Positions 2,540 through 63,714 of a DNA stretch of 64,000 bases are shown here, one piece after another. The DNA is from Schlesneria sp. (GTDB lineage: Bacteria; Planctomycetota; Planctomycetia; Planctomycetales; Planctomycetaceae): positions 7,339 to 71,338 of the forward strand of contig JAYVDI010000084.1 in NCBI GenBank assembly GCA_043749505.1, in the 5' to 3' direction. The notes under the pieces are model-generated. The model ran no database searches. It worked only from the letters and a program-made list of their open reading frames with translations, and was not told the DNA's origin. A program made the position numbers and the translations under genes. Position 1 is the first letter of the stretch, and each line of letters opens with the position of its first letter.

Positions 2540-4027
2540 TTACGCTAGATCCACTCGTCGTCCAGCCCACTTGTCCGCCGACACCTCGTCGCGCGAGACC
2601 CCTTCCGTACCCGAGATCGCCTCCAGTCGCTGGACCTGAGCTTTGGGAACGAGTACCGCCGTGTCACCGCCACTCGGCCGCAGCTTGATGAACGTGGCAT
2701 CGACCCACAGCACGTCTCCCTCCAACGGCGGCTGGTCCTTCAAATGGAGCCGCACCACGGCGCGGCCGGTTGGTTCGGCGAGTTGTGACGTGGACTCGAT
2801 CAACACCGCATCGAGTCGATCAAACAACCGGTTCTGTGACTCGCGCGGACGGAGCGCCTGACGAAAGTCGTCGCGTGTGACGGCCAGCTCTGACGACTGT
2901 TGCCTCGCTCGTCGCACAGCCAGCAATGCGGCTTCGTTGGCGAGGCTTTCGAGGTCCGCGCCGTGCTGCCCTTCCGTCCAACCGGCCACTTCATCGAGCG
3001 ACACGTCTTGGTTGAGTGGCTTGCCCTTGGTGTGAATCTTCAAAATCTCGACCCGATCCGCGCGCGTCAGTTCGGGCATCTTGATCCGCCGGTCAAAGCG
3101 GCCCGGTCGGAGCAGGGCTTGATCAAGAATGTCGGGGCGGTTCGTCGCCGCGATCACCACGATGCGCGGCTGCTGCTGAAAGCCATCCAAACAGACGAGC
3201 AACTGGTTGAGCGTCTGTTCCCGTTCGTCGTGACTGCCACCCAGCCCCGATCCACGACGGCGACCGATCGCGTCGATCTCGTCGATGAAGATCACCGCCG
3301 GCGAATTTTTGGTCGCTGTCTCAAACATGTCTCGTACGCGCGCGGCACCGACACCCACGAACAGTTGCACGAACTCCGACGCCGCGACGACATAAAACTT
3401 CGCGCCGGTCTCCCCCGCCACGGCCCGCGCGAGATACGTCTTTCCCGAACCGGGCGGGCCTTCCAGCAAGATACCGCGAGGAAGCCGCACGCCCGCGTCA
3501 GTCCACCGCTGCGGAGCCTTCAAAAAATCGACGACATCGCCGAACAACTCTTTCGCCTCGTGACAGCCCCCCACATCCGCAAACGTGATCTTGGCCTCCG
3601 CCCCGACCAGCTTCGCGCGACTCTTGCTCAGCTCTAACAGGTTGAAGCCCCCCGCCCCGCCGTTCATCCGCTTCAAGAACCAGATCACCGCCATCAACAC
3701 AATGACCGCAGCCAGGGCATAGATCATCAGAGATTCGTACCCCCCCGAGAACGACCTGTATTGAGGCTCAACTCCCAATCGATCCAGTCGCTCACCCAAG
3801 TCTTGACTGAGACTGCCCGCGGTCTCCATCCATTTCGTCCCGGCAGTCTGAAAGCGAATCCGATTGCCGTCGATCTCGACGCTACGAACGTCGCCCGCTT
3901 TCACCGCCGCCGAGAACGTTTGAAACGGCACATTACGAGCCGCCCCATCTTGGCTGGCGAGGTACAGCCAGAAGAACACAGCGCCCAGCGCGAGCCAAAA
4001 CAGCAGCGTCTTCAGTTTTGAGTTCAT
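2540..4027 (-). CDS. FtsH-like membrane AAA+ ATPase lacking the M41 protease domain
   Basis: 495 aa. FtsH-type N-terminus (TM, extracytoplasmic domain, TM). Walker A GPPGSGKT, Walker B IFIDEIDA and [22 protein letters not shown] are present. There is no HExxH anywhere. The C-terminal ~110 aa are an unrelated small domain. Confidence 0.85.
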
Positions 4028-4753: not shown

Positions 4754-7700
4754 CTACTTCCCCTTCAAGCTCTCCAAGTAAGCCAGTAGCGCCGCGAGTT
4801 GCTCGACATTGAGCTTGTCGGTCAGGCCGAAGGGCATGATCGAGACATCGCGTTTTCCCCGTTCGTCGATCTCGGACTTCTTGAGGATCGTTGCCAGACC
4901 GGCCACGTTGCGGAGTTCGATCTCATCGCCTGATTCTCGCACCACGAAGCCGTCGTGAACCTTGCCTGCATCGGTGACGAAGAACTGCGACTCGAAGCCC
5001 TGCGCGATCTTGGCACTCGGTTTGAGGATCGACTCGATCAACTCTTCCCGCTTGTACCGCTTGGCGATGTCGAGCAGCAGCGGTCCCTTGAGCGGTTCGT
5101 TCTGCGAGACCGTGTGACACGCGCTACAACCCTGTCTCGCAAACAGTTTCTTGCCGTACTTATCGTCCCCCTTGATCGAGGCTGTTTGAGCAATCGCCTC
5201 AGGCAGCGAAAGCTTGGCGAGCAGTGGCTTGTTCGGATCGACGGGCGGCTCCTTGTCGAGTTCCAGTTTCGCGGCGGCCCACTTCGCAGCGGCGCGAATG
5301 CCAGCGTTCTCCGACTTCGTCAGGTTGACGACTTGCAGCGATTGCGACTCGGCATCTGAGCGGCCGATCGCGCGAAGCAGGCTCACCGCGAGTTCCGGTT
5401 GCGACCACGCTCGCTCGACAAGCTTGAGAGCCGCGTCGCGCTCGGCCTTCTCACCGCGCGGGTTATCCGCCACTTGGACGAGGATCGCGTAGAAGTACTC
5501 GCGCACAAGCGACTCGCCTCCGGCGGCAACGAGAACACTCGGCGATTCAATCATCTCACCCAGTTTGGCGATATGCTTCGCGAAGACCGGTTCGCGGACG
5601 AAGCCGTTCCACGCGGCGACGACTTCGCCGTTCGGCTCATTTGCGTCCACTTCGGCAAACGCGCGCAATGCGATCTCCAGAACTTCGGGCTGGTTGGTAC
5701 GGCGCCCCAAGCCGCGCAGAGCCTTCACTCGCAACTCGGTCTGCGACTTATCGAACGTGGCCGCGACCTCCAACAACCGCGCGGCATCGCCCGACATTGG
5801 CGAACTTCCCGGCGCGAGCAACTCGACCCCCTGCGCGAAGAACGTTTTGTCGGCATGAGCCAGTGCGACGATCCGCTCTGTCGTGCCGGACAACTCAATC
5901 TTGTGCCGCCTCAATTCGACGAGCAGCCTCTTCACGGTGCGGGAGTCGCCCGTTGCCAACTCGGTTTGCAGAGCCTTCGTGATGCGATCGGTCTCGGACC
6001 ACGCGACCGGTTTGTAGTACGGGCCACTCGTGTCGGGGCGGGTACTCCACCAGTCGCCGGTGTATTCCCCTTCGCGATCATGGAGCCGACAAAGCGTTGC
6101 GAGAATCAGTTGCCGCGTCGTGGCGTAAGTGATCGGCTGACCGGTTGGCTGAGCAACAATCGGACGATCGAGCCATTCGATCAGCCCCGCGACAACAACG
6201 GGATCATGCAGCCGTCGCAACACCGCCGCTGCTCCAATCCGTTGTTCGAGCATTCGCTGCTCGGTCGAATTCGAGTTGAGAGACGCCAGACAAACTTCGC
6301 CCGCTTTCAACTCAACGAGACTATCGATGGCAACGTGAGCCACGATCGGATCGCGGTCCACCGCGAGCGGCAGCATTTTCTCCTGAACTTCGCGCGAGAC
6401 CTTGCCAAACCGTGACAGTCCGCGCACCGCCTGCAAGCGGACACGAGCATTCACGTCGGACAGAGCCTCCACAAACGGCTGGGACGACGTGTTCGCAAGC
6501 TGCGTTGTTCGATCGGCCATCGCACGCAAAGTGTGTTCGCGGATCGAAGCATCCGTCGCCAGCTTGGCCAGTACCATGTGAGACTTCTCACCGAGCAACT
6601 GCTTCAGGGTGAAGATCGCCGCGATCCGCACGGGGAGCATTGCATCAGAGGCGGCAAGTTGTTCGATGCCGTTCACCAACTCTGGCGACTCGCCCCGCAC
6701 GAGGATCTCTCGTTGGGCAGTCAACCGAATCGTGTGGCTCGGCGAGGCGAGTTGGCGAAGCAGTCGCGAGGTCTCTCCCAAGGCAGCCCTGTCGCTCCGC
6801 GACAGGAGGCGAGATGAACCCGCGGCTTCGTTTGCGGAATCCGTTTTCGATTTCGAGTCGCTCGACGATCGCGCTTCCTGTCGCGGAGCGACAGGGCTAC
6901 CTTGGGCGACTGGTCTCACCATCACGACGTACCCGACCTCGGGCTTGCTGAAGTTGAAGCCACCGTCGCGCCAACTGCTGATATAGATGTTGCCGCTGGC
7001 GTCGATGTCCATGTCGGTGGGGCGAGGCAACTCGACGAATGGTTCCTGCTCGGCCGTGAACCCCGCGCCATTCTTGGTGAGCGGATGCCGGTAGACGATG
7101 CTGCAGCCCCAGTCACAGGTGTAGAGCGACTGGCCGAGTCCCTCGGGCAGAGTCGGCTCGTCGATGAAGAGCGATCCACATGGCGAGCCGCCGCCGTAAT
7201 CGGCCATCGGCGGGATGATCTCATCCGGGAAGTTGATGAAGAGCGACGGGTAGCCCATCTGCCCGCCATGCGGCACATGACTGAGTCGCACGTTCCAGCC
7301 GCCACCGTCGTTGGTGTTGTCGCGCGTGAAGAGATCGAGTTCCGGGCTGATCGCCACGTCGTAAATGTTTCGCTGCCCGCGCGAGACGACTTGCAACTCA
7401 GAGCCATCCGGTCGGCAACGGACAATCCCGCCGCCGCGATACGCCAGCTCTTTTCCATCCGAGCCGGTCGCCTTGATGAAGCCGTAGTCTCCGACCGCAA
7501 CATAAATCCAACCGTCGATGCCGACTTGAATCCCGTTTGTCGTGTGGTCCGCCCCGCGAAACTTGAGATCAAAGCCGATCCCTTTGACCAGAGTCTCGGA
7601 GCGGTCACTCACACCGTCGCCGTTGTCATCGTGCAGGGCCACCAGGTTCGGCGGGGCGAGGACGATGAGCGAGGTCTTCAAGGTAGCCCTGTCGCTCCGC

Positions 7701-9370
7701 GACAGGAGGCGAGATGAACCATCGGCCCCATTCGTGGGATTCGATGGCGGTTGTGAGTCGCTCGACACGCGCGCTTCCTGTCGCGGAGCGACAGGGCTAC
7801 CTTGGACGACGATCCCGCGCGGGCTGTCGATGTTGGCGAAGGTCTTGAACTCGTCGGCCTTGCCGTCGCCATTTGTATCGCGGCAGCGGACGATCTTGCC
7901 GCGACCTTCCTTGCGGTCAAGCGACCCGTTCTCGTCGATGCCGACGTAGACCGTGCCATCGGGTGACGTGGCCAAACACGTCGGATAGTTCACGTCAGGG
8001 GGAGCGGCAAACAACGTGACTTCAAAGCCGGGCGGAGCCTTGATCCCGCTGAGCAGTCCCGTCCCTTTAATGCTGCGCGGCTTAAGATCGCCACCACCCG
8101 AGACCGTTCGTTCCTCGAACTTCGTCCCGAAGACCTCGAACTCAAAGAAGCTGCCCCAACGTCCGGGAGTCAGACTCGTCGTTGTGAGCCGCACGAACCG
8201 CACGTCTTTCGCGGCGAACTTCAGTGTCTGTGTTTGCTCGCGCGCATCACTCTTCTTCTGGTCCGAGAGCATCCACCATTGTTGACCATCGCCCGAACCT
8301 TCGACCTTGTAGCGGTAGTTCGTGTCGTCCGCTTCCCACAGCACTTGGACGCCCGTCACTTCCTGAGCCTGTTCCAGATCGACCTGCCACCAATAACCGG
8401 CCTCAGCGTTTGGCGAACACCAGCGTGTTTCTTCCTTCCCGTCGAGGGCGTGTTCTGGCGGATGACCGTCTTGCGACGCCGAAGCCGTTGCCTTTTTCCC
8501 TTTCGCCAAGTTGACTGGCACCAGTTCTTTCTTGGTGACGGCGAATGGCTGATGGTAATCGGGTGAAGTCTTGTCGCACGACCAGAGCAACGCGCGACAG
8601 AGCATGTCGAGATACCGGGCATCTCCGACCGTTTCATTGTTGTGGCCAAGCGTCGTGCTGAAGACACGCGTTTTCTTCGGCCCGTACTCGTTCACCCACG
8701 CAACGATGAAGTTTTCGACCTTGTTGCCCGTGTCCTGAGTCCCCCGCGCGATCGGCTTCGCGGTGTCGAACAGCTTCAGGTTGTTGTAAAGCTCCTCATT
8801 GATGGTCGTCCAATTCTCCAACCGCTTCGCGAACAAGCCGCCCGCGCCGCCGAAGCCCTTCACCACCGGATGCTCGGGAGCGACGAACGCGATGTCGATC
8901 GGCTTCTGCGGCCCGTGACTCGAAGACTGCATGCCAAGAAATTGGAACCAATCGTCCGTCCCCGTCCGATAGCTGTGCATCGCGCAGTGCAGGTTGATCG
9001 CCGGGATACCGCTCTTGTGCGCGTTCAGAATGTTCTGCACATACGGCTGCTCCTTCACATCGGCCGAGCATTCGTCGTGAATGACAACGTCATAGCCCTT
9101 TGCCCAGTCGGGGTTGTCGTAGATGTCGAACCGCGCCTTAATGCTCTTGTCGGGCGAGTAGACGATCGTGACCTCGGCCATCACGCGGGACTCGATCCCC
9201 TTCTTGAGGATGTCCTTCTGCTTGGCATAGTCGTGGCAGCAGCCACCCAGAATCAGCAGTGCCTTCAGCGGCTTGGGCTTCGTGATGGCAGCATCCTGCG
9301 CCGGAAGTTCAGCAGTTCGCGTGACCACAGAGGCGAGAAGCAAGAGCGAGAAGCGAATCAATCGGCGCAT
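4754..9370 (-). CDS. Giant secreted multidomain protein: ThuA-like, F5/8 type C (discoidin), dehydrogenase-like beta-propeller, HEAT repeats, and a C-terminal PVC-type cytochrome c (CxxCH) domain
   Basis: 1538 aa, ATG at 9370, signal peptide. ThuA-like LILGGCCHDY...HDEC. Discoidin-like ALDGKEETRWCSP..WWQVDL. Propeller motifs DTNGDGKADE and DDNGDGVSD. HEAT-like helical repeats. C-terminal GCSACHTV heme site. It contains two in-frame 126-nt palindromic inserts. Confidence 0.9.
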   Translation of the reverse strand: MRRLIRFSLLLLASVVTRTAELPAQDAAITKPKPLKALLILGGCCHDYAKQKDILKKGIESRVMAEVTIVYSPDKSIKARFDIYDNPDWAKGYDVVIHDECSADVKEQPYVQNILNAHKSGIPAINLHCAMHSYRTGTDDWFQFLGMQSSSHGPQKPIDIAFVAPEHPVVKGFGGAGGLFAKRLENWTTINEELYNNLKLFDTAKPIARGTQDTGNKVENFIVAWVNEYGPKKTRVFSTTLGHNNETVGDARYLDMLCRALLWSCDKTSPDYHQPFAVTKKELVPVNLAKGKKATASASQDGHPPEHALDGKEETRWCSPNAEAGYWWQVDLEQAQEVTGVQVLWEADDTNYRYKVEGSGDGQQWWMLSDQKKSDAREQTQTLKFAAKDVRFVRLTTTSLTPGRWGSFFEFEVFGTKFEERTVSGGGDLKPRSIKGTGLLSGIKAPPGFEVTLFAAPPDVNYPTCLATSPDGTVYVGIDENGSLDRKEGRGKIVRCRDTNGDGKADEFKTFANIDSPRGIVVQGSPVAPRQEARVSSDSQPPSNPTNGADGSSRLLSRSDRATLKTSLIVLAPPNLVALHDDNGDGVSDRSETLVKGIGFDLKFRGADHTTNGIQVGIDGWIYVAVGDYGFIKATGSDGKELAYRGGGIVRCRPDGSELQVVSRGQRNIYDVAISPELDLFTRDNTNDGGGWNVRLSHVPHGGQMGYPSLFINFPDEIIPPMADYGGGSPCGSLFIDEPTLPEGLGQSLYTCDWGCSIVYRHPLTKNGAGFTAEQEPFVELPRPTDMDIDASGNIYISSWRDGGFNFSKPEVGYVVMVRPVAQGSPVAPRQEARSSSDSKSKTDSANEAAGSSRLLSRSDRAALGETSRLLRQLASPSHTIRLTAQREILVRGESPELVNGIEQLAASDAMLPVRIAAIFTLKQLLGEKSHMVLAKLATDASIREHTLRAMADRTTQLANTSSQPFVEALSDVNARVRLQAVRGLSRFGKVSREVQEKMLPLAVDRDPIVAHVAIDSLVELKAGEVCLASLNSNSTEQRMLEQRIGAAAVLRRLHDPVVVAGLIEWLDRPIVAQPTGQPITYATTRQLILATLCRLHDREGEYTGDWWSTRPDTSGPYYKPVAWSETDRITKALQTELATGDSRTVKRLLVELRRHKIELSGTTERIVALAHADKTFFAQGVELLAPGSSPMSGDAARLLEVAATFDKSQTELRVKALRGLGRRTNQPEVLEIALRAFAEVDANEPNGEVVAAWNGFVREPVFAKHIAKLGEMIESPSVLVAAGGESLVREYFYAILVQVADNPRGEKAERDAALKLVERAWSQPELAVSLLRAIGRSDAESQSLQVVNLTKSENAGIRAAAKWAAAKLELDKEPPVDPNKPLLAKLSLPEAIAQTASIKGDDKYGKKLFARQGCSACHTVSQNEPLKGPLLLDIAKRYKREELIESILKPSAKIAQGFESQFFVTDAGKVHDGFVVRESGDEIELRNVAGLATILKKSEIDERGKRDVSIMPFGLTDKLNVEQLAALLAYLESLKGK
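6779..6904. mobile_element. 126-nt MITE/REP-like palindromic element (family B), in frame inside the giant CDS
   Basis: Terminal inverted repeats are CAAGG(C/T)AGCCCTGTCGCTCCGCGACAGGAGGCG and CGCTTCCTGTCGCGGAGCGACAGGGCTACCTTG. Each arm is itself a hairpin (CCTGTCG-5 nt-CGACAGG). The centre is variable. The element is 42 codons. Confidence 0.85.
7679..7804. mobile_element. Second copy of the 126-nt family B element, in frame inside the giant CDS
   Basis: It has the same arms, orientation and reading frame as the copy at 6779-6904, exactly 900 nt away. It is translated as QGSPVAPRQEAR...GSSRLLSRSDRA.L. Confidence 0.85.
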
Positions 9371-13624: not shown

Positions 13625-13692
13625 GTTTTCCGAACTCTCTCAAGTAGGGCGGGCACGGCCCACCGATTCGTCTTCGAGTTGATGTTTGGTCT

Positions 13693-13775
13693 CGTTTAAC
13701 CGCGTGGGCAACGCCCCGCGCGTTGATGGCGAGTCCCGCGTCGAACACGCGGGGCGTTGCCCACGCGGTTAAACG
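13693..13775. repeat. Perfect 28-bp inverted repeat, family C (CGTTTAACCGCGTGGGCAACGCCCCGCG), aceE-aceF intercistronic
   Basis: Arms 13693-13720 and 13748-13775 with a 27-nt spacer. A second copy lies at 55100-55191. Confidence 0.9.
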
Positions 13776-13796
13776 AAGAATTTGCCGTTGGCGGTC

Positions 13797-33447: not shown

Positions 33448-33646
33448 CAGCCTGTTGAAAAGGTAGGACGGGCACTCTTGCCCGTCGGTTTTCAAGCTAA
33501 GAACTCGTCCAAAAACAATGTCGTCTTTCGCTTTGCGAAAGAACGCCCTTTCGCGGAGCGAAAGGCGACAAACGGCGGAGTCATTCTTGGACAGGTTCTA
33601 AATGACGGGCAAGAGTGCCCGTCCTACAGGGTTATTCAACAGGCTG
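33448..33646. repeat. Composite palindromic element, family D (outer 39-43 nt inverted arms plus two inner 7-bp/5-nt-loop hairpins)
   Basis: Arms are 33448-33486 (CAGCCTGTTGAAAAGGTAGGACGGGCACTCTTGCCCGTC) and 33604-33646. Each arm contains the GACGGGCA....TGCCCGTC hairpin. The inner hairpins are 33524-33542 (TCTTTCG-CTTTG-CGAAAGA) and 33547-33565 (CCTTTCG-CGGAG-CGAAAGG). Confidence 0.85.
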
Positions 33647-37423: not shown

Positions 37424-37435
37424 GGGAGTGACGCA

Positions 37436-37523
37436 CACTAACCCGAAGCGTGAGCGAGGACGATCCCGCGCGAGACATCAACGCTGAATGTCTCATCGCC
37501 CTCGCTCACGCGGCGGGTTAGTG
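37436..37523. repeat. Palindromic element, family F (AACCCG.AGCGTGAGCGAGG ... CCTCGCTCACGC.GCGGGTT), 20 nt upstream of the copA ATG
   Basis: Arms 37436-37460 and 37499-37523. A second copy lies at 63548-63621. Both are followed by GTGTTCCT. Confidence 0.85.
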
Positions 37524-37542
37524 TTCCTAGGAGAGGCTGTTC

Positions 37543-40170
37543 ATGACTGAAGACCAATCACCGTTGCGATCACTCGCGTTGTCTTCGCTGAAGGTTCTCA
37601 ACAACGAACCGGATGCGTCGGGGCCAGCATCGACCCACGCCATCGATCCGATCTGCGGGATGAGCGTTGATCGTGCGACCGGTCGCTCGTGCGAGCGCGA
37701 TGGAACGACGTGGTACTTCTGCTGCGAGTTCTGTCGCACGAAGTTTCTCAACCCGGCACCCGCTTCGACCGAGCCTCCACTGCCCGGCACGAACTACTTC
37801 TGCCCGATGTGCCCCGGCGTGACGAGCGATCATCCCGCGAGTTGCCCGACGTGCGGCATGGCTCTCGAACCCGAATTGGCTTCAGGAACTCACGGTGACG
37901 ATGACACAGGACTGCGCGATTTGTGGAGGCGCTTCGTCCTTGCGGTCGCCTGCACGGTGCCCGTGTTCGTGCTGGCGATGGGTCCGATGATCGGGCTTCC
38001 CGTTAATCGCTGGGTCCGACCAACGACATCGTTTTGGTTGCAAGCACTGCTCAGCACGCCGGTCGTGTTGTGGTGCGGCTGGCCCTTCTGGGTGATCGGT
38101 TTCCAATCGCTGCGGACTCGTTGCTGGAACATGTTCACACTGATCCTGCTCGGTGTGGGGGCGGCCTTCGTGATGAGTCTCGTGGAGTTGTTCAGGCTGA
38201 CGTTTGGGTACTCCTCGACAGGGCACGAACAGGTTCACGCCAATCTCTACTTCGAGTCGGCGGCAGTCATCACGACGCTGGTGTTGCTCGGTCAGATTTT
38301 GGAACACCGCGCACGGCGTCGGACGGGGCAGGCGATTCGCGAGCTGATGAACCTCGCGCCGCCGATGGCATGCGTGATTCGGAACGGTGTCGAGCAAACC
38401 GTTCCACTGGGCGAAGTCATGCCGAGCGAGATGATTCGCGTCCGTCCGGGCGAGACAATTCCGGTCGATGGCTTGCTGATGGGCGAAGGTTCACTCCGTG
38501 ATGACTCACACCGCAACGCCGAGTCTTTTTCCGGTCCCGTTGCCCCCCGCCTTGGGGGGGAGAGAGTTAGGGTGACGAGGGCCGAGGCGGACACGCGACC
38601 ATTCACCGCAACAACCCCGACGGAGCCGAATGACTTTCATCCGACGCAACTCCGCTGCGAAGAGGAGACCCCTCACCCTAACCCTCTCCCCGCAAAGCCG
38701 GGGCGAGGGGACAAGGCCAAGAGTCCGTTCATCGCCTTCTCTGACCTTCATCCCTCGACCCTCAACGATCAACCTCCGCTGACGACCATCGACGAATCGA
38801 TGCTGACGGGCGAGTCGCTTCCGGTCGCGAAGGGTGTTGGCGATCAAGTGCTCGGCGGGACAGTAAACCAGACAGGCTCATTCCTGATGCGGGCGGAGCG
38901 GGTTGGTAGCGAGACGTTGCTCGCGCAAATCATTGGGTTGGTGGCGAAGGCTCAGCGCAGTCGAGCGCCCGTACAGCGGCTGGCCGATGTGGTGGCGAGT
39001 TGGTTTGTACCCGCAGTGCTGAGTGTGGCTGCGGTCACTCTCATCGCGTGGTCGCTGGCGGGATCGTCCAGTCATGGGCTGGCGAATGCTGTCGCGGTCC
39101 TGATCATTGCGTGTCCGTGTGCGCTCGGGCTGGCGACTCCGATGGCGATCACGGTGGGAATGGGGCGAGCCGCCCGCAGCGGAGTCCTCTTTCGCGATGC
39201 CGAATCGCTCGAAGAACTTCATCGCATCGACACGCTGTTCATCGACAAGACCGGTACGCTGACTGAGGGAAAGCCGAGTCTGATGAAGCTCGATCCCGTG
39301 TCAGGCTTCTCTCGCAGAGAGATCTTGCAATTGATCGCCTCTGTTGAGCAATCGAGCGAACATCCGTGGGCGCGAGCCTTCGTGAATGCCGCGAACGCAG
39401 AGGGAATCGAACTCCTGTCGGTTGCTGATTTTCTCAACGTGCCGGGGCAAGGTGTGAGCGGTCGCGTGAATCACCAGATCGTCCGCGTGGGCCGCTCTCA
39501 GTTCATTTTCGATGGATTCCGCGATCGAGTCACCGAAGGACCACCTTCCGGAGGAAGAAGTGTTCTGTTTGCGTCGGTGGATGGCCAGTGCGGTGCAATG
39601 TGTGAGTTAGAAGATGAGATTCGCTCGTCGAGTCCCTTGGCAGTGGAGGGGCTTCAAAAAAGAAACGTCAGAGTCGTATTGCTCACCGGAGATCAACTCA
39701 GCTCTGCACAGGTTGTGGCCCAGAAAGTCGGGATTGATCGAGTGGAAGCAGTGCTCAAGCCAGACGACAAGCTCACACGGATCGAAGATGCCCGTCTCTC
39801 CGGCCATGTCGTTGCGATGGCAGGAGACGGGATCAACGACGCGCCCGCATTGGCTGCTGCAAACGTTGGCATCTCGCTGGGAACCGGCACCGACGTGGCG
39901 AAGCAATCGGCGGGAGTGATCCTCGTTCAGCCCGATTTGCGCCGGATCGTCACCGCATTGGCGCTCAGTCGGGCAGTCATGACGAACATCCGCCAGAACC
40001 TATTCTTCGCGTTCGCCTACAACGCGTTGGGAGTCCCGCTCGCAGCGGGAGTTCTCGAACCCTTCGGCGGCCCGGCCCTCGATCCGATGCTGGCGGCATT
40101 GGCAATGAGTCTGAGTTCGTTGTCTGTAATTGGCAATGCGCTGCGGCTGAACGGCTTGCAGGACGAGTGA
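37543..40170 (+). CDS. copA: Copper-translocating P1B-type ATPase with an N-terminal YHS/TRASH-type metal-binding domain
   Basis: N-terminal CGMSVD...YFCCEFC and CPMCPGV...CPTCGM. ESMLTGES (TGE) motif, CPC motif (IACPCALGLATP), DKTGTLT, GDGINDAPAL. It contains a 97-aa in-frame insert (38494-38784). Confidence 0.9.
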   Translation: MTEDQSPLRSLALSSLKVLNNEPDASGPASTHAIDPICGMSVDRATGRSCERDGTTWYFCCEFCRTKFLNPAPASTEPPLPGTNYFCPMCPGVTSDHPASCPTCGMALEPELASGTHGDDDTGLRDLWRRFVLAVACTVPVFVLAMGPMIGLPVNRWVRPTTSFWLQALLSTPVVLWCGWPFWVIGFQSLRTRCWNMFTLILLGVGAAFVMSLVELFRLTFGYSSTGHEQVHANLYFESAAVITTLVLLGQILEHRARRRTGQAIRELMNLAPPMACVIRNGVEQTVPLGEVMPSEMIRVRPGETIPVDGLLMGEGSLRDDSHRNAESFSGPVAPRLGGERVRVTRAEADTRPFTATTPTEPNDFHPTQLRCEEETPHPNPLPAKPGRGDKAKSPFIAFSDLHPSTLNDQPPLTTIDESMLTGESLPVAKGVGDQVLGGTVNQTGSFLMRAERVGSETLLAQIIGLVAKAQRSRAPVQRLADVVASWFVPAVLSVAAVTLIAWSLAGSSSHGLANAVAVLIIACPCALGLATPMAITVGMGRAARSGVLFRDAESLEELHRIDTLFIDKTGTLTEGKPSLMKLDPVSGFSRREILQLIASVEQSSEHPWARAFVNAANAEGIELLSVADFLNVPGQGVSGRVNHQIVRVGRSQFIFDGFRDRVTEGPPSGGRSVLFASVDGQCGAMCELEDEIRSSSPLAVEGLQKRNVRVVLLTGDQLSSAQVVAQKVGIDRVEAVLKPDDKLTRIEDARLSGHVVAMAGDGINDAPALAAANVGISLGTGTDVAKQSAGVILVQPDLRRIVTALALSRAVMTNIRQNLFFAFAYNALGVPLAAGVLEPFGGPALDPMLAALAMSLSSLSVIGNALRLNGLQDE
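38494..38784. mobile_element. 291-nt composite repeat-derived insertion inside copA (two inverted family A copies flanking ~90 nt)
   Basis: The canonical ...VDG.V..G.S.VDESMLTGES is split here as GLLMGEGS-[97 aa]-TIDESMLTGES. The insert contains a family A copy in reverse at 38539-38581 and a forward copy at 38669-38716. Confidence 0.8.
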
Positions 40171-52521: not shown

Positions 52522-55197
<2,676 letters not shown>

Positions 55198-63519: not shown

Positions 63520-63547
63520 GGCTTGCGGCGTATGTCACTCTTGCAAC

Positions 63548-63621
63548 GCCAACCCGCAGCGTGAGCGAGGGGGAGGGAATATCCCTCGTGGAATCGCCCT
63601 CGCTCACGCTGCGGGTTGGTG
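63548..63621. repeat. Family F palindromic element, second copy
   Basis: Arms GCCAACCCGCAGCGTGAGCGAGGG at 63548-63571 and CCCTCGCTCACGCTGCGGGTTGGTG at 63597-63621. Confidence 0.85.
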
Positions 63622-63714
63622 TTCCTGAACCTCGTTCGCCTGTTCACTGTCTGCATCGACCACGACTCGCAGCCCGGCCCGGTGCCGGGCTGCTTCAACA
63701 CGGGAACCCTTTCG

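Follow-up and report, generated by a model that had tools for sequence, protein, structure and literature searches.

Two copies of a 126-nt palindromic element lie in frame inside a single 1538-codon gene in a 64,000-nt stretch of DNA from Schlesneria sp. (Planctomycetota; GenBank assembly GCA_043749505.1, contig JAYVDI010000084.1, positions 7,339 to 71,338 of the forward strand), which we refer to as the window. The element is a REPIN, a doublet of repetitive extragenic palindromes (REPs): two GTAG-tagged REPs inverted tail-to-tail around a variable spacer, as its anatomy and its association in related genomes show. REPINs are usually regarded as strictly extragenic. We consider it very probable that the two copies belong to a family associated with a REP-associated tyrosine transposase (RAYT), and that they are in-frame passengers of the host gene that have been filtered by selection, not adaptations.

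Two palindromic copies in one large gene

The two copies have the same orientation, lie 900 nt apart (Table 1) and are identical at 107 of 126 positions, or 85% in a 132-nt comparison. Eighteen of the 19 mismatches fall between element positions 36 and 84, and the last is at position 121, in a GTAG tag. Inverted termini measure 33 nt with 97% complementarity in copy A and 42 nt with 90% complementarity in copy B, and the window holds four occurrences of the 22-nt arm core, whereas shuffled sequences predict 0.00. Every arm holds the hairpin CCTGTCGC-TCC-GCGACAGG with an 8-bp stem and a 3-nt loop. An earlier note on this DNA had drawn a 7-bp stem with a 5-nt loop, which is the same hairpin with one pair opened, and had described a variable centre of about 35 nt; the centre is indeed variable, at a length of about 49 nt. 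Folded as RNA, copy A reaches -86.6 kcal/mol (z = -10.6) and copy B -83.4 kcal/mol (z = -10.5).

Each copy amounts to 42 codons of the minus-strand open reading frame (ORF), and both are read in one common frame as QGSPVAPRQEAR(V/S)SSDS...GSSRLLSRSDRA(T/A)L, with GIVVQGSPVAPR and LLSRSDRATLK among the encoded peptides. Frame 0 of the plus strand reads QGSPVAPRQEAR in both copies and meets a TGA directly after the arm, which explains the spurious plus-strand ORFs ending at 6817 and 7717. Sequence comparison and ORF translation thus agree with the earlier note on the pair of 126-nt copies in one 1538-aa gene, on their shared orientation and frame, on the exact 42-codon read-through and on the plus-strand stop. 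Its remark that the surviving copies are exactly the ORF-preserving ones is true and carries little weight, since about half of the family's frames 0 and 1 are stop-free and three of the six frames are open in each window copy.

Some sources name homologues of the host protein "putative membrane-bound dehydrogenase-like" or "heme-binding" protein. There are 746 homologues; a typical orthologue has 1420-1460 residues, and the window protein is 84 residues longer. Insert A splits its Pfam match to DUF7133 in two.

Table 1. Positions in the window of the host gene, the two REPIN copies and their arms.
Feature	Coordinates	Strand	Description
Host gene, 1538 aa	4754..9370	-	ThuA, F5/8 type C (discoidin), DUF7133 beta-propeller, HEAT repeats, cytochrome c (ORF list, Pfam)
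REPIN copy A (site A)	7679..7804	-	126 nt, 42 codons, residues 523-564; DUF7133 propeller turn after PRGIVV
REPIN copy B (site B)	6779..6904	-	126 nt, 42 codons, residues 823-864; linker between last propeller strand and first HEAT helix
Arm of copy A	7679..7711	+	CAAG-GTAG (7683-7686)-C-hairpin (7688-7706)-AGGCG; one GTAG-tagged REP
Inverted arm of copy A	7772..7804	-	GTAG on minus strand (CTAC 7797-7800), hairpin 7777-7795
Arm of copy B	6779..6811	+	degenerate tag GCAG 6783-6786, hairpin 6788-6806
Inverted arm of copy B	6872..6904	-	GTAG on minus strand (CTAC 6897-6900), hairpin 6877-6895

Anatomy, distribution and transposase association of the element

Among 193 aligned arms, the G, T and A at positions -3 to -1, which lie beyond the search pattern, are conserved at 97, 96 and 90%; the AA flanking the GTAG is conserved at 62-69%, and conservation ends at about position -7. 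In the arm consensus the hairpin comes after (C)AAnGTAG. The GTAG tag is intact in three of the window's four arms, and the remaining one has GCAG. REP palindromes have been defined by a stem of 5-13 bp and a loop of 2-20 nt (PMC3733652). The 8-bp stem and 3-nt loop of the arms fall within these sizes, and the 33-42 nt arms with 90-97% complementarity form the inverted REP pair of a REPIN. Whether taken as RNA or as single-stranded DNA, a whole element forms a single long hairpin, with folding energies of -83 to -92 kcal/mol (z from -10.5 to -11.6). An Rfam search over positions 6500-8100 returned sub-threshold chance matches only, and no family was matched.

The label "MITE-like" (miniature inverted-repeat transposable element) used in the earlier note does not hold for a REPIN that is associated with RAYT-type Y1 transposases and leaves no target-site duplication. 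A classical MITE derived from an insertion sequence (IS), with the terminal inverted repeats of a DDE transposon and a target-site duplication, and moved in trans by a full-length IS, would resemble the element in its size of 95-135 nt, its terminal inverted repeats and its numerous dispersed copies. Neither window copy is flanked by a direct repeat, as the flanks GTCGTC...AAGACC and GTCGCC...GGAGAG have none in common. The termini consist of GTAG and a self-complementary hairpin, which is REP architecture, and the element repeatedly brackets one gene only, a homologue of Y1 HUH and not of DDE transposases. An origin as a classical MITE is thus highly improbable.

The arm was searched against one genome per bacterial species, and all counts are lower bounds. 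It was found in at least 111 genome stretches from at least 25 species-level Planctomycetaceae assemblies, all labelled Planctomycetota and mostly Schlesneria and Planctomyces metagenome-assembled genomes (MAGs), and a separate scan found it in at least 120 metagenome contigs. Related DNA contains 152 unique doublets, 120 of which have enough flanking DNA for classification; 99 of these 120 lie outside long ORFs, making the family mostly intergenic. Further copies, which the earlier note had proposed to look for, are therefore numerous. The source genome, read as the 64-kb window, shows two family copies, both intragenic. A subfamily-specific 34-mer had no match among metagenome contigs of the JGI.

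Several records of the CAMDPK/CAMDRI assemblies (L008, L031, L033, L077, L087, L091, L097 and L100) that carry the REPIN family together with DUF7133 genes are titled "Candidatus Kuenenia stuttgartiensis". The organism labels of these records look doubtful.

A candidate partner gene occurs in a Schlesneria MAG (L106), a Planctomyces MAG (L109) and metagenome contigs (L149/L118), where an ORF of 222-234 aa has the element on both sides within about 15-35 nt. The motifs MPNHVHLL (HUH) and RYIADNP (with the catalytic tyrosine) are invariant or nearly so in 25 homologues of this ORF. A profile built from the 25 homologues had a single match in the PDB, the E. coli transposase TnpA-REP (4ER8, E = 0.002), in an alignment that spans both motifs and pairs MPNHVHLL with LPEHMHCI and RYIADNP with YIYINP. 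A single-sequence phmmer search of the PDB with the L106 transposase gave a chance cytochrome match only. Many homologues of the flanked ORF have precomputed PF01797 matches, and some sources call them RayT. The RAYT-like protein is 220-234 aa long, and its first strand is followed by an insertion of about 60 aa.

In E. coli, TnpA-REP needs the GTAG at the foot of the hairpin for binding and cleavage, cuts single-stranded DNA at CT and carries out strand transfer in vitro (PMC3479197). By analogy, the planctomycete protein may move the REPIN as TnpA-REP would. The element would then be a non-autonomous mobile element of Schlesneria- and Planctomyces-like Planctomycetaceae, whose relatives encode a divergent RAYT bracketed by it. 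This RAYT, like TnpA-REP and the IS200/IS605 transposases, would recognize the GTAG and hairpin on single-stranded DNA, cut and rejoin strands and so spread copies, two of which would have inserted into the ThuA-discoidin-propeller-HEAT-cytochrome c gene.

Many members of the RAYT-like family, among them P0123 and P0128-P0131, bear the JGI name "type I restriction enzyme R subunit", probably a misannotation that has propagated. Many of these proteins come from contigs about 1 kb long, which would fit breakage of assemblies by flanking REPINs.

Insertion sites in orthologues and in the predicted structure

Both segments are missing from 115 of the 120 best homologues of the host protein. The five homologues that bear the peptide all fall in the clade of the nine closest, whose BLASTP identities to the window protein are 78-84%. 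A family copy occupies site A in P0001, P0002, P0004 and P0006, and site B in P0001, P0002 and P0007 only. Both sites are empty in P0005 and P0009 (79-80% BLASTP identity) and in all 111 more distant homologues. Site A of P0005 and P0009 is a tight turn, VVDGNKLIV, which resembles the turn of distant orthologues, and the empty site reads …ATCGTCGTCGACGGAAAC… in nucleotides. The MAG from which P0005 originates (JANODP) has family copies elsewhere. By this comparison of orthologous sequences, the two segments are insertions. The earlier note had named two findings that would speak against its view, namely homologous 42-aa segments without a nucleotide palindrome in distant orthologues and the lack of any further copy of the element. 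No homologous segment was found in distant orthologues; both segments are missing from these and from two of the nine closest ones, and the element is present elsewhere.

An ancestral protein segment with coincidentally palindromic coding DNA and no insertion would account for the open reading frame only. It conflicts with the absence of the segments from the 115 homologues and with the identical DNA element in intergenic DNA and unrelated genes, for which zero chance matches are expected. We count this explanation as already refuted, its probability being close to nil.

Shorter linkers at site B in P0003, P0004, P0005 and P0006 were considered as decayed REPINs and rejected, as 12 to 500 of 500 shuffles reach the observed local alignment score. 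Gain and loss at site B are not distinguishable. Proteins from L014 and L100, taken up as possible orthologues with the element at the same sites, are distant DUF7133 paralogues of about 29% identity with inserts at other positions. A profile of the 42-aa peptide searched against a set of 5.8 billion proteins gave six matches, all short proteins with E > 0.3, the query being too short for a census of hosts.

An AlphaFold model was made for residues 430-900 from 55 aligned homologues, with a mean predicted local distance difference test score (pLDDT) of 82.5 and a predicted template modelling score of 0.83. It shows a confident beta-propeller followed by helices. Insert A (model residues 94-135), whose block-mean pLDDT is 46-76, forms a coil that separates strands 90-97 and 135-143. 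Insert B (model residues 394-435) is mostly coil and links the last strand, at 385-391, with the first helix, at 429-445; its pLDDT is below 50 at residues 395-427. The model thus predicts two disordered excursions, one at a beta-hairpin turn and the other at an inter-domain linker. The placement proposed in the earlier note, one copy in the propeller and one in the linker before the HEAT repeats, is reproduced by the model, and the structure prediction it had suggested returned low-confidence coil for both segments.

Three properties probably explain why the copies persist. The insert length is a multiple of three; the SPVAPRQE...LSRSDRATL frame is stop-free and would encode a hydrophilic peptide rich in proline and serine; and the beta-hairpin turn and the inter-domain linker would tolerate an additional disordered loop of 42 residues. 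By sequence comparison and structure prediction, the copies persist because they are in frame, stop-free and at disordered positions.

The same filter appears across the family. Copies inside an ORF that is open for at least 100 codons on both sides make up 21 of the 120 classifiable ones (17.5%), and their hosts have recognized domains. These hosts include PSCyt1/PSCyt2/PSD1 proteins, a GlnE/GlnD-like enzyme, a NirB-like (nitrite-reductase-like) reductase, several DUF7133 paralogues and an ABC transporter with the insert placed between its membrane and ATPase domains. An arm-to-arm length of 2 modulo 3 occurs in none of the 21 in-ORF copies versus 38 of the 99 others (p = 0.00017). The in-ORF copies are read in the SPVAPRQ frame in 17 of 20 cases versus 3 of 20 for the VALSLRD frame (p = 0.003). 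This 17:3 bias is not due to stop codons, since the two frames are about equally often stop-free across the family (148 and 155 of 300, respectively); the third frame is mostly closed by the TAG within GTAG. Together, the biases in length and frame speak, indirectly, for translation of the segments and for an influence of the encoded peptide. They also argue that the hydrophilic, proline- and serine-rich peptide of the SPVAPRQ frame is better tolerated than the basic amphipathic one of the VALSLRD frame.

An ORF of at least 1006 aa in L066, with no Pfam match, contains two in-frame family copies at 5613-5745 (133 nt) and 7422-7569 (148 nt). Both read SPVAPRQE...PVAERQGY and parallel the double insertion in the window gene.

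Most probably, both window segments stay in the transcript and in the translated host protein. Alternatively, they might never reach the protein, either because the gene is a decaying pseudogene or because the hairpin is excised or bypassed on the mRNA, and hairpins of this strength could hold up ribosomes. The ORF is unbroken over all 1538 codons, and so are the element-bearing ORFs of P0002, P0004, P0006 and P0007, in which amino-acid identity is 80-87% versus 54-68% at four-fold sites. Removal before translation would need no stop-free, length or frame class, yet no in-ORF copy has a length of 2 modulo 3 and the frames are split 17:3. We therefore regard a failure of the segments to reach the protein as very improbable.

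Frozen arms, a recurrently occupied loop and known parallels

Nucleotide sequences of seven orthologues, with gene-wide four-fold-site identities of 0.51-0.76, gave the four-fold-site gene tree ((((P2,P3),P4),win),P5),(P6,P7), in which win is the window gene. At site B, the arms of the window gene, P0002 and P0007 are identical at 33 of 33 and 28-30 of 30 nt, and all 12-13 four-fold sites are the same. Gene-wide, the same pairs have a four-fold identity of 0.58-0.68, and their site B spacers are 57-68% identical. At the gene-wide rate the probability of such arm identity is 0.001-0.01 per pair. The 5' arm at site A is equally frozen, while the 3' arm shows ordinary synonymous divergence, its identity at four-fold sites being 1-3 of 3. 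The hairpin of this 3' arm in P0002 and P0004 has exchanged a G-C pair for A-T by compensatory substitutions (TCG to TCA and AGC to AGT, both synonymous). Spacers at site A group the window gene with P0004 and P0002 with P0006, in conflict with the gene tree. Every copy in the host gene is exactly 126 nt long, while the family mode is 131-134 nt. The two window spacers have a mutual identity of 0.74, compared with at most 0.69 to unrelated family members. As a test of common descent, spacer identity is only marginally informative, since the gapped background of unrelated spacers is 0.58-0.60 (maximum 0.69) and orthologous spacers reach 0.67-0.74. The patterns of arms and spacers are compatible with constraint on the arms, with homogenization from a genomic pool, or with repeated recent insertion.

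One alternative is that the element has been exapted, with the DNA or RNA hairpin kept for a function and the arms selected as nucleic acid. Such a function could be translation pausing or attenuation at a domain boundary, protection of the upstream mRNA, or a continued role as a RAYT substrate. The high stability of the mRNA hairpins (-83 and -87 kcal/mol, z about -10.5), site B arms frozen at four-fold sites next to spacers of only 57-68% identity, the compensatory change at site A in P0002 and P0004 and the position of copy B exactly at the boundary of propeller and HEAT domains are all in line with this idea. However, the presence/absence polymorphism in close orthologues shows that the segments are dispensable, the 3' arm at site A diverges at ordinary synonymous rates, and the compensatory change is a single event. 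The arm is also constant across the family in at least 25 genomes, and recent insertion from a master pool or gene conversion would give the same pattern. We therefore consider exaptation rather unlikely, and prefer to see the copies as RAYT-associated passengers.

Some observations weigh against a mobile REPIN carried as a passenger. The frozen arms at site B are not predicted for pure passengers unless the insertions are recent or homogenized. A tblastn search of the 64-kb window found no RAYT homologue, and we infer the cognate transposase and the intergenic copies in the source genome from its relatives. The ORF flanked by the element in these relatives scores 40.2 bits against a cut-off of 80 for the NCBIfam family REP_Tyr_transpos (NF047646) and 18.7 against 23 bits for Pfam Y1_Tnp (PF01797). 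Since both scores are under the curated cut-offs, we class the protein as a divergent, RAYT-like Y1 transposase instead of an equivalog. We know of no planctomycete REPIN for which transposition has been demonstrated.

The turn at site A has been occupied more than once. In P0003 (L117, about 3600-3700), it carries a different GTAG palindromic doublet, GTAGGGTGGGAC..., of a family also present in L063 and L073, and in P0007 (L115, 2446-2532) a doublet of yet another GTAG palindromic family, GTAGGATGGGCTTCCAGCCC.... P0008 has an insert of the same kind as P0007, as judged from its protein sequence alone. Some REP doublet is thus found at this turn in seven of the nine closest orthologues, and three GTAG doublet families are represented. 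This recurrence may reflect target preference, exchange of one REPIN for another, or simply the most permissive position. A bolder and, in our view, doubtful proposal is that particular protein loops of this clade do more than tolerate REPINs and are preferred sites of their landing or exchange, and that intragenic copies are "alive" as nucleic-acid elements, as the frozen arms, the one compensatory stem change and the conflict between spacers and gene tree would suggest. If so, RAYT/REPIN systems would act as a site-biased generator of recurrent loop and linker variation in large planctomycete proteins. One loop occupied by three REPIN families also offers a concrete system for asking about RAYT target preference.

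Two other inserts in this protein look like translated repeats. P0002 and P0004 share a lineage-specific insert, EKPVGKQEPLSPGPSPRKAGARGEGEV, in the ThuA domain (alignment columns of about 270-300), and P0007 has an insert of about 56 aa (…GSPDPAETDDRRSP…RRGQETRAEL) in the HEAT region (columns of about 1180-1240).

The closest parallels are the REP/REPIN-RAYT systems, such as REP/BIME (bacterial interspersed mosaic elements) with TnpA-REP in E. coli and the REPINs of Pseudomonas (PMC3479197, PMC3116915, PMC3337134). Shared features are the GTAG at the foot of the hairpin, the inverted REP pair that forms one long hairpin, the many dispersed copies, and the same repeats on both sides of a Y1 HUH transposase gene. 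Whereas the definition of classical REPINs makes them extragenic, about one copy in six of the planctomycete family lies inside a protein-coding ORF and is read through. The planctomycete transposase also differs from classical RAYTs by its length of 220-234 aa, its insertion of about 60 aa and its scores under the RAYT and Y1_Tnp cut-offs.

Intragenic REPs are themselves not new. Di Nocera et al. 2013 (PMC3733652) described GTAG- and CGTC-tagged REPs that lie entirely within ORFs, often as dimers, and encode extra residues. Some ORFs contain two such insertions, and tail-to-tail dimers have variable spacers. Hosts in their catalogue include Opitutus terrae, of the Planctomycetes-Verrucomicrobia-Chlamydiae superphylum (GTAG-17 to -20), and Rhodopirellula baltica (GTAG-20/21), and the authors proposed that intragenic REPs are neutral in flexible linkers and loops. 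The suggestion in the earlier note that in-frame palindromes had not been described for planctomycetes is weakened by this catalogue, which already holds in-frame REPs, dimers and ORFs hit twice. The window case is a well-documented further example, with precedents in Rickettsia and Opitutus, and not a new phenomenon. The stem CCTGTCGC/GCGACAGG does not occur in the accessible portion of the supplementary text of that paper. Here the full doublet of 126 nt encodes 42 aa, compared with mostly 20-30 aa for the dimers in the catalogue, and the insert resides in conserved multidomain proteins of large size, in contrast to the small hypothetical proteins of the R. baltica examples considered. For the window gene, presence and absence in orthologues and structural placement are shown in addition.

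Rickettsia palindromic elements (RPEs; PMC3733652) are likewise palindromic repeats of about 100-150 nt found in frame in functional-looking protein genes, and the window element shares with them in-frame insertion into a conserved protein gene at tolerated positions. They belong to a different phylum, and the likeness is a functional one, that of an in-frame palindromic insert. Di Nocera et al. assigned the intragenic repeats RPE-4 and RPE-6 of R. conorii to the CGTC class of REPs, for which they reported no dedicated transposase (PMC3733652). Bacterial MITEs that add residues to proteins, for example those of Coxiella burnetii (PMC5896051; review PMC10969869), are also small non-autonomous repeats that alter a coding sequence without destroying it. 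They are of the terminal-inverted-repeat type, in contrast to the REP architecture, lack of target-site duplication and Y1 partner of the planctomycete element. The window gene adds a clean, polymorphic and structurally placed case to the short list of "selfish DNA inside proteins" formed by Rickettsia RPEs and Opitutus REPs. On the practical side, REPIN inserts inflate and fragment domain matches, as in the split DUF7133 match, and break assemblies.

Other repeats were noticed in the window. A different palindromic element at 38545-38703 is read through in frame in an ORF on the plus strand (37543-40170, 875 aa) that resembles heavy-metal P-type ATPases, making this the second window gene with an in-frame repeat. 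Its arms, CCCCGCCTTGGGGGGGAGAGAGTTAGGGTGA and TCACCCTAACCCTCTCCCCGCAAAGCCGGGG, are 31 nt long and 87% complementary, and it forms part of about 95 additional residues that separate ...GLLMGEGS from TIDESMLTGES. A GTAG-headed REP doublet, GTAGGACGGGCACTCTTGCCCGTC ... GACGGGCAAGAGTGCCCGTCCTAC, with fully complementary (100%) arms of 24 nt and a 117-nt spacer, is located outside long ORFs at 33463-33627. The source genome seems rich in REPIN-like repeats. Apparently intergenic are two copies of the palindromic repeat TCGTTTAACCGCGTGGGCAACGCCCCGCG (13692-13776 and 55097-55194), two copies of the palindromic repeat AACCCGCAGCGTGAGCGAGGG (37435-37524 and 63545-63623), and nested palindromes at 2396-2518.

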